The notes beneath the pieces were generated by a model. The model made no database searches and had not been told where the DNA came from. It saw only the letters and a program-made list of their open reading frames with translations. Shown one piece after another: positions 17,059 through 20,466 of a stretch of 41,973 nt of DNA. Location: positions 1 to 41,973 of the forward strand of contig JAQUKH010000025.1 in the NCBI GenBank assembly GCA_028719205.1, read 5' to 3'. A program made the position numbers and the translations under genes. Position 1 is the stretch's first letter. Each line of letters opens with the position of its first letter. This DNA is from a bacterium. Lineage in GTDB: Bacteria; JACRDZ01; JAQUKH01.

Positions 17059-17198
17059 AAATGGGGATATATGAGAAGGAAAAACAGTTTTTAAAAAAAA
17101 GCAGACGTCAATTAATCTAGGATTTTGGCTAACACTGGACTCGGGCCACTTGCCTTCCTTCTCGGTTAGCTCAAACGTTGTGTGGAGAAAGGACAAAC

Positions 17199-17580
17199 GT
17201 GGCATATTGCACTTATTGTGGCAAACCTGAACCGAATACAGTAGATCACATTCCGCCGATATGTCTTTTTCCCTTACCGCGGCCTTCGAATCTTGTAACC
17301 GTGCCATGTTGTCTCGACTGCAACAAAGACACATCCAAAGATGATGAATACTTTCGGATGATGCTGGTAATGCGGCGTGATGTAAAGCATCCAGCCGTAC
17401 CGAAACTTTTGGATACAGTTCATCGAGGACTTGGCAAACCTCGGAAGCGAGGCATGCTTTATGGGTTGCTTCGAAGTATGCGGTCAGTGTCCGTAAAAAC
17501 GCATGCTGGTCTCTACATCGGTCGTGCTATGGCATATGATGTAGATTTGGAACGTCTAGGCCGAGTTGCCGACCGCATTG
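17199..17580 (+). pseudogene. HNH-type endonuclease gene, 5' part (interrupted by IS110)
   Basis: GTG at 17199 after AAAGGA; CTYC...DHIPP...VPCCLDCN zinc-finger/HNH motif; frame broken at the IS left junction. Confidence 0.85.
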
Positions 17581-17692
17581 ATAATATAAAGGCCCCCTTA
17601 TAAAACAGGCTTGATACGGGAAATATTTACCCGTATCATCCTAATTAGTGGATCCTGTGCATGGAGCACGGATAATAAAAAAGGGGGCTTTT

Positions 17693-18745
17693 ATGAACTT
17701 TTATAACGCTCAAAAATCATTTTACTGCGGAATTGACCTGCATTCAAGAAATATTTATATCTGCCTAATGGATAAAGACCGGAAAATATTAGTCCACAGA
17801 CAGCTTAAAAGCAGAGCTACTGATATTCTCATTAAAATATTTGAACCATATAAGCATGATCTGGTTGTTGCCGCTGAATCTACTTTCGCCTGGTATTGGC
17901 TTGCGGACTTCTGCGCGGAAAATAATATCGAATTTATTTTAGGCCATGCTTTATATATGAAAGCCATTCATGGAGCTAAAGCAAAAAATGATCGAATAGA
18001 TTCTGAGAAAATAGCTCTGCTGGCGCAAGGTGGTATGTTTCCTTTATCATATGTCTATCCAAAAGAGAAAAGAGCTTTACGAGATCTATTAAGAAGAAGG
18101 CTTCATTTTGTTAATATCAGAGCCAAATTATTCGCTCATGTTCAGATCGTCAATTACCAGAACAATAATGAATCCTTAAAAAAACTCAGCAATAATAAAT
18201 CTATCCGCCCGGATATTCCTTCTTTCTTTTTCGATGAAGATATTAAAAAATCCATAGAAGCCGATCTGGAAACAATTGCTTATTTTGATAACATCATCCC
18301 TAAATTAGAGTGGCATATTCTATCTAAAGTTAAACAACAATATCAAAAAGAACTTTCTATTCTTTCTTCCGCCAGAGGTATGGGAGACATCATTGCATTA
18401 ACCATTCTTTTTGAAATTGACACTATAAACAGGTTCGAATCCGTTCAGGATTTCGCTTCTTATTCCAGAGTAGTTAAATGTCAGCATAGCTCTGCGGGTA
18501 AAATATGCGGCTCAGGCGGATCCAAAATAGGCAATCCTTATCTTAAAAGGGTATTCTCTGAAGCCGCCTGCCTTATGGCAACCTATAATCCCTCAATTAA
18601 AAAGTATCTCGATAAATTAAAACGCAAACACCATAATAGAAAGGCTTTAATAATTTTAGCTCACAAAATAGCTAAAGCTGTTTACTATATGCTGAAAAGG
18701 GAGACTGTATTTGATATAAATAAATTTTTAGAAAATAATAATTAA
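17693..18745 (+). CDS. IS110-family DEDD recombinase/transposase (350 aa)
   Basis: GIDLH, AAEST, KNDRIDS (DEDD); C-terminal HSSAGK serine loop and KIGNPYLK; ATG at 17693 after AAGGGGG. Confidence 0.96.
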   Translation: MNFYNAQKSFYCGIDLHSRNIYICLMDKDRKILVHRQLKSRATDILIKIFEPYKHDLVVAAESTFAWYWLADFCAENNIEFILGHALYMKAIHGAKAKNDRIDSEKIALLAQGGMFPLSYVYPKEKRALRDLLRRRLHFVNIRAKLFAHVQIVNYQNNNESLKKLSNNKSIRPDIPSFFFDEDIKKSIEADLETIAYFDNIIPKLEWHILSKVKQQYQKELSILSSARGMGDIIALTILFEIDTINRFESVQDFASYSRVVKCQHSSAGKICGSGGSKIGNPYLKRVFSEAACLMATYNPSIKKYLDKLKRKHHNRKALIILAHKIAKAVYYMLKRETVFDINKFLENNN

Positions 18746-18747
18746 TA

Positions 18748-19160
18748 TTGGATCCTGACGGTGATTTCCGGCTTCTAACTGGAGCAAAAATACAGCAGCT
18801 TACATTAAGTCCGTAATAAATAATTAAAATTCATGAAACTTATAAGCGCTTTGGGCAGCTCTTTCGCATTGATTGAAACACCGTCAGCGTCCATATATTT
18901 TACATGAAGCAATATATGATTCTATTACGTTGTTCTGCGCCTTCCCCGAGCCCGATTGATACTGGCCGGCATATTTTACGCCGAGCTCCTTTTTTGAATG
19001 GGACGGTATGAGGCCGTATGATATTATTCTCTGGGCCGCACGGATACAGGCTGTTATGCCTCTGTGCTGTCGTTATAAGTTTAAATTATTAATTTATGCT
19101 TATAGCTATTGAGCCCCTATAGGTGTTTAGAGCAGACACGTAAAGTGTTTTAGCCTCACT
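18748..19160 (+). ncRNA. Putative bridge/seek RNA of the IS110 element
   Basis: Two stem-enclosed regions carry segments matching the target (18772-79, 18865-71) and the donor junction (19021-28, 19118-25); boundaries approximate. Confidence 0.75.
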
Positions 19161-19280
19161 TGAGAATAAGTTGGAAATTAACGTGATAGATGATTATTGT
19201 GCTTGTGATCTTTCTACTTATGATCACTTTACCAAAAAGATTTTCCTTAATCTATTTTTGGTTAGGAGCTATTTTTTTGC

Positions 19281-19304
19281 TTGACACCGGGGGCCTTATA
19301 GGTG
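19281..19304 (+). promoter_or_regulatory. Outward-facing -35 half of the IS circle-junction promoter
   Basis: TTGACA at 19281-86; joining the right end to the left end gives TTGACA-17nt-GATAAT. Confidence 0.85.
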
Positions 19305-19615
19305 TTAAAGGACTGTTCTTTAAAGAATTTGGTACACGCTTGCCGGATACCCACGGAGTTCGATCATTTGCAGAGTCCGGTCTCACAGAGGTTGATTCAA
19401 ATTTGCGATTGACCATCGGGCAAACTGTAGCAACGCTTGTGTCAAAGTTGCCGAGGGTTATTGTGGATGGAGTGTTTGAATATTGGGTTCAGGCTACAGC
19501 AGAGGATCCGGCAACAACCGTTTGGTTGATGCGCTTTTATGCCGTAGAGTCATTTCTTTGTATCACTGCGCCTAATGTGAAGCCGGCTGGTGATTGTAGC
19601 GTTAAATATGGATAG
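19304..19615 (+). pseudogene. HNH-type endonuclease gene, 3' part
   Basis: VKGLFFKEFGTRLP... continues in frame from ...RVADRI once the IS is excised. Confidence 0.85.
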
Positions 19616-19814
19616 TTTGAAAACTTGAGATACAAATTTCCCCCTCATTTAAATTCTAATATTAAGCGGAGTTTAGAAGGTAAATTCTGCAAATACTGAA
19701 GGAATTTTCTTATATTATTCAATATAAGAAACTTATTAAGCAAAAAAAGTGAGTTTTATAGTATAATATTTGGGTAAATAATGTTGTTTTTCAATTTTTA
19801 AGGCAGGAAAAATT

Positions 19815-20111
19815 ATGTTAACGACAGATACTATTCAAAATAAATTAAAAGAGCATAAAAAATATATTAACGAAAATTATCATATAACAAATATTGGTAT
19901 TTTTGGGTCATATGTTAAAAATATGCAAGAAGAAAAAAGTGATATTGATATTTTGGTGCAATTTAAAAAAGGGCATAAAGGCTTTTTTAATTATGTGAGG
20001 TTAAAACATTATCTTGAAAATATTTTCGGGAAAGAAGTAGATCTGGTTATGAAAGATGCTGTTAAATCGGGATTGAAAAAGAGGATATTTAAAGAGGTGA
20101 AGTATGTCTAA
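19815..20111 (+). CDS. Minimal nucleotidyltransferase (MntA-like antitoxin)
   Basis: GS-X10-DxD motif (GSYVKNMQEEKSDID); 98 aa; overlaps the HEPN gene. Confidence 0.92.
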   Translation: MLTTDTIQNKLKEHKKYINENYHITNIGIFGSYVKNMQEEKSDIDILVQFKKGHKGFFNYVRLKHYLENIFGKEVDLVMKDAVKSGLKKRIFKEVKYV

Positions 20112-20466
20112 AGATGATAGGGAGTATACTTTATTTATTAGGGATATAATAACGGCTATTAGGAAAATAGAGAAATATACCAATAAATTAACTTATAAGC
20201 AATTTAGCAAAAATGAAATGGTAGTTGATGCGGTTGTGCGGAACTTTGAAATAATTGGAGAATCTATAAGTAATATTCCTCTGGATATTCAAAAAAAATA
20301 TCCGGATGTAGAGTGGAAAGAAGCTAAAGAATTCCGAAATGTCTTAATTCATAATTATTTTGGTATTAATCTGGAATCTGTTTGGGATACAATTGAAAAA
20401 GATATTCCTGCCTTAAAGAAACACATCAAGAAATTATCTAAAGAAATAGATTTAGTAGAAAAGTAG
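20104..20466 (+). CDS. HEPN/DUF86 RNase toxin (HepT-like)
   Basis: DAVVRNFEIIGE and R-X4-H-X-Y motif (RNVLIHNY). Confidence 0.92.
   Translation: MSKDDREYTLFIRDIITAIRKIEKYTNKLTYKQFSKNEMVVDAVVRNFEIIGESISNIPLDIQKKYPDVEWKEAKEFRNVLIHNYFGINLESVWDTIEKDIPALKKHIKKLSKEIDLVEK

Follow-up and report, generated by a model that had tools for sequence, protein, structure and literature searches.

A predicted bispecific bridge RNA downstream of the recombinase gene in an IS1111-type element from an uncultured bacterium

The window analyzed here, 41,973 nucleotides (nt) of contig JAQUKH010000025.1 (assembly GCA_028719205.1) from an uncultured bacterium, contains a 1.72-kb insertion sequence (17581-19302) of the IS1111 group of the IS110 family. 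Judged from the sequence and its comparison with relatives, the non-coding region (NCR) of this intact element very probably encodes, on the + strand, its bispecific bridge (seek) RNA, about 390 nt in length (18746-19139). The RNA has two loops with guides to both DNA strands around the core, and these guides lie in loops flanked by conserved helices. The element is a well-supported but expected further member of the IS1111 type, a kind of system known since 2024. A preliminary description had already proposed the recombinase, the TG core and four guide segments in two regions. All motifs, coordinates and antisense pair counts that it listed were correct, including the short GAGC/GCTC inner stem of the first region and the segments TGAGGC (19009-19014) and GCCTCA (19153-19158) of the second.

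The element splits an HNH-like gene at CGCAT-TG-TTAAAGG. At the left junction (...CGCAT-TG-ATAATAT..., more widely ...GCCGACCGCAT-TG-ATAATATA-AAGGCCCCC...) the left target flank ends in one copy of the TG core (17579-17580), and at the right junction (...TATAGG-TG-TTAAAGG, more widely ...GGGGGCCTT-ATAGG-TG-TTAAAGGACTG...) the second copy (19303-19304) directly follows the element. TG and TT are each common to both junctions, and either reconstruction preserves the host reading frame. The N-terminal fragment of the split protein was used as a query to retrieve full-length homologues of 236-259 amino acids. In all nine aligned homologues, two residues separate the conserved R-I/M from G-L/I-F/Y, and one of them reads RIVKGLFF. 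Counting TG once gives ...DRI-VK-GLFF, whereas with TT as the core the reconstruction is one residue short of the homologues, and this candidate was rejected. The spacing in the homologues therefore identifies CGCAT-TG-TTAAAGG as the empty site, as the preliminary description had it. Insertion was site-specific, with a short core, TG, common to target and donor and present at both junctions. The natural target sequence is CGCATTGTTAAAGG, and CGCATTGTTAGAAG is a further candidate target sequence for the element.

Between the core copies, the ends are organized as in other IS1111 elements. The left terminal extension ATAATATA (17581-17588), which constitutes the right-donor half-site, is followed by the subterminal repeat AAGGCCCCC (17589-17597), an exact 9-nt inverted repeat of GGGGGCCTT (19289-19297) that is kept in the relatives. 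The right terminal extension ATAGG, the left-donor half-site, and the right core copy together occupy 19298-19304. Both 9-bp repeats are thus set in from the core copies, by 8 nt and 5 nt, and their length is within the 7-17 bp of IS1111 elements. Non-coding DNA amounts to 112 nt on the 5' side of the recombinase gene versus 560 nt on its 3' side, the same layout as in 50 relatives. Subterminal repeats and a long downstream NCR are among the hallmarks described for the IS1111 group (PMC11187229; PMC11208160).

The recombinase gene (17693-18745, + strand) encodes 350 amino acids from an ATG that aligns with the M-x-F-Y start of the relatives. Pfam identified DEDD_Tnp_IS110 (PF01548, E-value 1.3e-13) and Transposase_20 (PF02371, E-value 5.3e-17), corresponding to a DEDD/RuvC-like N-terminal domain and an IS116/IS110/IS902 C-terminal domain. 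The protein scored 189 bits on the NCBIfam model NF033542 'IS110 family RNA-guided transposase' (cut-off 140), and the earlier assignment as an intact IS110/IS1111 recombinase was borne out by these matches. Similarity to the solved IS621 structure (8wt6) was marginal (E-value 7e-4) and confined to the C-terminal domain.

Relatives were collected by recombinase search and comprised 26 loci in species genomes (44-56% identity) together with 80 metagenome loci, the best among 104. L029 (87%), L030 (75%) and L032 (56%) are among the metagenome loci kept. A terminal TTGAC together with an inverted repeat (8 nt or longer) allowed both ends to be placed in 50 elements; one locus (L021) turned out to be a false pairing and was dropped. 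In all the elements so placed, the NCR measures approximately 420-820 nt, the left tip keeps GATA(A/C)T, and TTGAC lies a short distance inside the right repeat.

The first module of the predicted RNA, module 1 (18746-18898, + strand), binds the target in our interpretation and was delimited by the minimum free energy fold, compensatory changes and a covariance model. It consists of a closing helix (18755-18763, CTGACGGTG, with 18879-18887, CACCGTCAG), the extra pairs U18767-A18876 and C18768-G18875, an internal loop of 12 x 12 nt (18769-18780 and 18863-18874), and an inner helix (18781-18785 with 18858-18862). Because of the wide loop, the target guides are not buried in stems, a concern that had been raised as a possible objection. 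A common scaffold can be recognized in the NCRs, in which the closing helix is followed by a 5' strand with an invariant AAC at its end and then UGG, by the inner helix with its variable apex, and by a 3' strand whose last bases are U(U/G)GAUUGG. All 18 consensus pairs of module 1 show compensatory changes among 20 sequences, and the closing stem proposed for the first region is among those that covary. Between the window and L029, the closing helix is identical at 17 of 18 positions and the 5' strand of the loop at 8 of 12.

Two guides lie in this loop. The right-target guide CUUCUAAC (18772-18779; CTTCTAAC as DNA) pairs with the top strand of G-TTAAAGG and contains the family-invariant AAC; against GTTAAAGG it forms 6 Watson-Crick pairs and 1 wobble, with 1 mismatch. 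The left-target guide, CGCAU followed by the core UG and by AU (18865-18873), is identical to the left junction over 9 nt and covaries with the left flanks of the relatives.

For the comparison across relatives, guide positions were anchored on the invariant motifs. Both anchors were present in 40 elements, and L007, L046, L060, L061, L063, L064, L087 and L103 lacked them. L013 was dropped from the target test because its right flank is a duplication. After deduplication, 35 insertion events remained, with 32 usable right flanks and 32 usable left flanks. At the five positions adjoining AAC, the guide was complementary to its cognate right flank in 89 of 160 cases (64.7 expected), a value as high as which was not reached in any of 20,000 permutations, and the result was unchanged with 25 unique guides. 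The four positions adjoining the core were identical to the left flank in 70 of 128 cases (48.1 expected; 0 of 20,000 permutations), and extension to five positions gave p = 3.5e-4. Matches between guide and flank fade beyond about 5-6 nt from the core. Exact examples are found in L007 (ATGCCTAA), L009 (TGTCCAACT) and L005 (GGCGTGGAT), and the first variable base of the right flank tracks the guide even between close kin, being A in the window and G in the 87%-identical L029. Nearly all insertions are at T-(T/G)G-TT because AAC and UUGAU are invariant in the family.

The second module, module 2 (18931-19139, + strand), is a predicted donor-binding multiloop. In the RNAalifold consensus of 14 sequences it is closed by UCUGC (18934-18938) and GCAGA (19132-19136), and the 3' strand of this helix comes directly after the left-donor guide. 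The first branch of the multiloop starts from a basal helix, GCCUU (18939-18943) with GAGGC (19010-19014), for which the compensating variants CCCUU/AAGGG, CCCUC/GAGGG and GCCUU/GAGGC occur. The scheme as a whole was paired in 100% of 193 cells, compared with 34-54% when the partners were slid. The donor guides are accordingly placed in single-stranded stretches of the multiloop and, like the target guides, are not buried in stems. The preliminary description had closed this region with TGAGGC and GCCTCA. The two segments are indeed complementary, but they are probably not the closing helix, since only 69.5% of their cells are paired in 14 relatives, against 100% for GCCUU/GAGGC. The same bases cannot serve both pairings, and TGAGGC/GCCTCA could represent an alternative or tertiary contact.

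The right-donor guide AUAUUAUU (19021-19028; ATATTATT as DNA) is complementary to G-ATAATAT of the left end and forms 7 Watson-Crick pairs and a wobble with GATAATAT. The left-donor guide, UAUAGG with the core UG and UU (19118-19127), had originally been delimited as TATAGGTG (19118-19125) and is identical to the right junction over 10 nt. In most elements, the sequence of the right end (five bases, core, TT) is repeated 130-360 nt before that end, and this second occurrence changes with the end: ATAGG, ATAGA, ATGAG, ACAGG, ATAAG and TTAGG are end variants that are each mirrored in the RNA. The donor test included 23 distinct donors, while 18 elements with missing anchors or ends were skipped. 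The left-donor guide agreed with the right end at 107 of 138 positions (83.0 expected), which none of 20,000 permutations equalled. In complementarity, the right-donor guide window favoured the left end of its own element over those of other elements (150 versus 135.6 expected, p = 1e-4). All four guides thus covary with their DNA partners across the relatives. Their order, right-target (18772-18779) before left-target (18865-18871) and right-donor (19021-19028) before left-donor (19118-19125), agrees with the earlier proposal and with the published IS1111 order, in which the top-strand match lies 5' of the bottom-strand match (PMC11187229).

We also note variation among relatives in the first base of the core at the right junction (TG, GG, AG, CG); the left-donor guide and the left junction mostly have TG. 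In L005, for example, the guide reads ATAAG-TG and the end ATAAG-GG. This suggests that a mismatch at core position 1 is tolerated.

Covariance models were built in a leave-one-out manner from relatives only, module 1 being represented by 19 sequences and module 2 by 13. In the 42-kb window, either model had a single match, at 18746-18898 for module 1 (75.1 bits, E-value 7e-16) and at 18931-19139 for module 2 (127.7 bits, E-value 4e-31). At 17 further loci outside the model building, matches were located just behind the recombinase gene in 15 cases for module 1 and in 16 for module 2. Plasmids of Vibrio campbellii ATCC BAA-1116 and of Pseudoalteromonas sp. were among the matches. In the best relative on a Pseudomonas aeruginosa plasmid, an element without annotated IS name whose protein is 33% identical, neither model matched at E <= 0.01. 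An Rfam scan of 17400-19500 returned nothing better than E 1; the seven sub-threshold matches listed, to small nucleolar RNA and small RNA families, were at chance level, and no bridge-RNA family was among them.

The picture of two separate regions overlooked a conserved arm between them. Arm B (18939-19014, + strand) is the first multiloop branch of the consensus fold. Its apical hairpin (CGGC, 18967-18970, with GCCG, 18980-18983) covaries, with CAACG/CGTTG in L029 and GCGTG/CACGC in L030. Below the hairpin, an internal loop is formed by a 5' strand (18954-18962, GAUUGAUAC) and a 3' strand (18984-18999), which end in (A/U)AC|UG and UUUGA(A/G)UGG, respectively, the short motifs of the target loop. 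Unlike the target loop, the loop of arm B is well conserved, and the window and L029 agree in it at 10 of 10 and 14 of 16 positions. Its strands did not covary with the flanks (p 0.07-0.94, 20-22 events), and this result served as a negative control for the method. A role as second target loop was rejected, given the lack of flank covariation, the absence of the spelled-out site in 14 loci, and 23 matches in the genome compared with 22 for the reversed control. A role as reader of the subterminal repeats was likewise rejected, as no complementarity was apparent by eye. Arm B might be a fossil or a fixed third recombinase-binding loop, which could recruit an extra recombinase dimer or act as a decoy loop that regulates assembly or directionality, although we consider this idea speculative and rather doubtful. 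If it is true, arm B would define a three-loop variant of bridge recombination.

To assess chance in the window alone, the NCR was shuffled 3000 times with its dinucleotide composition preserved. The sense match to the left junction (9 nt, CGCATTGAT, 18865-18873) was equalled in 244 shuffles and that to the right junction (10 nt, TATAGGTGTT, 19118-19127) in 19, and no shuffle contained both. The preliminary description had reported these matches correctly but had understated their length. The antisense matches are at the level expected by chance in this AT-rich tail, so the evidence for the antisense guides lies in where they sit, within conserved loops, and in how they covary across relatives.

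Several observations weigh against the proposed bridge RNA. Exact antisense matches of 7 nt and 6 nt were obtained in 2376 and 2843 of the 3000 shuffles, respectively. Of the 8 positions of the right-target guide, 2 do not fit the occupied site perfectly (one is a mismatch, the other a wobble), and the left-target guide matches over 5 nt plus the core only. The right-donor guide is the weakest of the four, and L029, with the same left end, differs from the window at 8 of 19 positions of the right-donor RNA segment. Four of the five UCUGC/GCAGA pairs are invariant, which makes this helix conserved and not proven by covariation, and the 69.5% pairing of TGAGGC/GCCTCA is still above that of slid controls (35-45%). 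The permutation tests preserve composition and not phylogeny, and kin are not independent. No RNA run was found among the sequencing runs listed for this DNA. Finally, the element is present only once in the assembly (92.7% complete).

The single copy would also be compatible with a dead relic, that is, with an RNA architecture that is real for the family but resides here in an off-target insertion that is no longer mobile. In the same assembly, no further copy beyond a 28-nt fragment was found, and the module-2 covariance model matched only this copy genome-wide. The target spelled by the guides has 14 positions, 2 of which are not matched by the site. Neither an empty site nor a circle junction was found over 17200-19650 in the contigs of four DNA runs, which proves nothing either way. 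However, the element retains an uninterrupted open reading frame, two perfect repeats and the two halves of the predicted junction promoter discussed below. Moreover, the genome contains no site with 0-1 mismatch to the guide-spelled 14-mer and 18 sites with 2 mismatches (the reversed control gave 19); since the occupied site itself has 2 mismatches, it equals the best available. We regard a relic as an unlikely explanation.

Less probable still, in our judgement, is that only module 1 acts as an RNA guide, in the manner of a short seekRNA, with the ends recognized by the protein via the subterminal repeats and 19118-19127 representing a pseudo-end in the DNA. Such a role for module 1 would have a precedent in ISEc11, for which a seekRNA of 70-100 nt with only target matches sufficed and for which recognition of the left end was left open (Siddiquee et al., PMC11187229). 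It would also fit the weakness of the right-donor guide in the window and in L029, and the chromosome of Desulfopila sp. IMCC35008 (L013), where the right end is joined to an internal TG with a 195-bp duplication, so that DNA of the NCR was used there as a recombination partner. Yet both donor strands track the ends over 23 distinct donors and are located in single-stranded stretches of a conserved multiloop. Donor-binding loops, often multi-loops, have been predicted for IS1111 elements (PMC11208160), and the donor loop of IS621 is required for efficient insertion (PMC13626964). Finally, it is extremely improbable that the matches arose by chance in an untranslated, AT-rich tail with another role, e.g., in messenger RNA stability or termination: two of the four are at chance level in the window, the 9-nt left-junction match recurs in 8% of shuffles and no Rfam family is found here, yet the two sense matches never occurred together in 3000 shuffles, covariation with flanks or ends is seen for each of the four segments in relatives whose proteins are 44-87% identical and whose G+C content differs greatly, and the helices around them covary as well.

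With the bispecific bridge RNA as the preferred reading, the following mechanism can be proposed. The 5' strand of module 1, CUUCUAAC, would pair with the right target flank (top strand) and the core G, and the 3' strand, CGCAU-UG, with the left flank (bottom strand) and the core; this 3' strand continues into AU (18872-18873), the first two bases of the left end of the element. In module 2, the single strand after arm B, AUAUUAUU, is predicted to recognize the left end by complementarity, and the single strand before the closing helix, UAUAGG-UG, would act as a copy of the right end and core that continues into UU (19126-19127), the first two bases of the right flank. By analogy with IS621 and ISEc11, the circular donor and the target would be united by recombinase dimers bound to the two modules, and strands would be exchanged at TG. 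The AU and UU dinucleotides may serve as handshake guides that favour insertion, with pairing gained only after strand exchange, as has been reported for IS621 (PMC13626964).

Joining of the ends in the circle would also create a promoter. TTGACA (19281-19286, + strand) is the predicted -35 half, with TTGAC at the same place in all relatives listed, and GATAAT, made up of the core G and 17581-17585, is the candidate -10 half. The joined ends read TTGACA-17 nt-GATAAT and, by analogy with IS621, ISEc11 and the family in general, would drive expression of the recombinase and the RNA. Within the element, promoter-like sites were not more frequent than in shuffles (10 versus 6.8 +/- 2.7), and a terminator scan did not find any terminator. 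Behind the donor module, 19160-19280 contains a conserved motif, GAGAAU-AAGUUGGAA (GAGAAAU..AAGUCGGAA in relatives), and a run of 7 T residues directly before the -35 box is kept in the four closest relatives; the motif, the T run or both could mark the RNA 3' end or an UP element. At the left end, between repeat and start codon, a palindrome (GATACGGG-N9-CCCGTATC, 17613-17637) overlaps a promoter-like TTGATA-17-TATCAT. Relatives carry a hairpin at the same place, e.g., GCATAC...GTATGC in L005.

Among characterized systems, the element shares a DEDD recombinase of approximately 340-350 amino acids, subterminal repeats and a long NCR downstream of tnp with ISEc11, ISPa11, ISKpn4 and ISPst6 (Siddiquee et al., 2024, PMC11187229). 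A top-strand match that comes first in the RNA and a predicted junction promoter are further features in common with IS1111-group seekRNA elements (PMC11187229). The target spelled by its guides, CGCATTGTTAG, is contained in the attC target of ISPst6, CGATTTGAACGCATTGTTAG (Table 1 of the review PMC13604230). Differences from this group concern the size of the RNA, with modules spanning about 390 nt compared with described seekRNAs of 82-96 nt (short) and 148-172 nt (long), and the crossover, which is TG|TT beside a GTTAG motif and not AA*CG (PMC11187229).

With the IS621 bridge RNA (Durrant et al., 2024, PMC11208160; Hiraizumi et al., 2024; PMC13626964), the predicted RNA has in common two modules, one guide per DNA strand, a shared 2-nt core, a handshake-like dinucleotide after the 3' guide that matches the partner DNA, and a predicted promoter from joined ends. 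In contrast to IS621, as it is described in these texts, the RNA is encoded 3' and not 5' of the gene, is about 390 nt long and not 177 nt, mirrors the guide order, and carries its donor guides in a multiloop and not in an internal loop; the core is TG instead of CT, and protein similarity is marginal. Once the DNA strands are renamed, the layout becomes that of IS621, with a 5' guide followed by a 3' guide and two further bases. The location of the RNA in the right end agrees with IS1111 bridge RNAs predicted by covariance models (Durrant et al., PMC11208160), and the same text notes multi-loop donor binding for many IS1111 elements. The suggestion that the architecture might be new is hence only weakly supported. 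What appears unusual is the three-module RNA of about 390 nt with a non-programmable, target-loop-like arm. No solved structure for the IS1111-type group turned up in our literature searches.

Some further observations concern the sites and NCRs of the relatives. Many relatives are inserted at G|TTRRRY-like sequences (flanks of L007, L008, L009, L047, L048 and L053 among those examined). An integron attC context, with an inverse core within 170 nt (29-140 nt upstream), was recorded in 9 of 35 cases, compared with a chance estimate of about 4.6. The clade may target integron attC-like sites, with a crossover point unlike that of ISKpn4 and ISPst6, but these data are suggestive only. In L013 (4374-4763), a 195-bp part of the 3' NCR is tandemly duplicated with 195 of 195 positions identical. 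The first right end, ATAGA-TG, is fused directly to an internal TG that precedes the RNA's copy of the right end by 21 nt, and the true flank comes after the second copy of the duplicated part. In two metagenome contigs, L033 (1498-1911) and L034, module 1 and module 2 are separated by about 600 nt that contain an open reading frame for a 137-amino acid helix-turn-helix protein (HTH_23, E-value 9e-11; HTH_29), a passenger gene in the bridge-RNA region.

Two further IS110-family recombinase genes are present in the genome of the host (contigs C35, 2414-3388, and C43, 11804-12378), one of them intact (221 bits) and the other interrupted by two in-frame TAG stops. Two groundwater runs contain relatives with about 93-94% similarity, and one contig is nearly of element length (17578-19306). 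The split host gene (17178-17580 and 19303-19615) belongs to a family of proteins of about 240 amino acids with a CxxC...CC..C motif and a weak match to HNH_5 (E-value 8e-4, below the cut-off); its homologues do not have names. Directly downstream, 19815-20466 contains overlapping genes for a nucleotidyltransferase (PF01909, E-value 3e-15) and a HepT-like RNase (PF01934, E-value 6e-30), a toxin-antitoxin pair of the MNT-HepT type.

Taken as a whole, the element is a well-documented and apparently intact predicted RNA-guided recombinase from an uncultured bacterium. It belongs to a clade of more than 100 loci, including plasmid copies in cultured Vibrio campbellii and Pseudoalteromonas, that have recombinases 42-87% identical to that in the window, a long three-module bridge RNA and a TG (or NG) core in common. 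The finding leaves the known mechanism unchanged. The comparative set supplies guide positions, loop boundaries and natural examples of reprogramming, and could seed experiments on IS1111-type elements.

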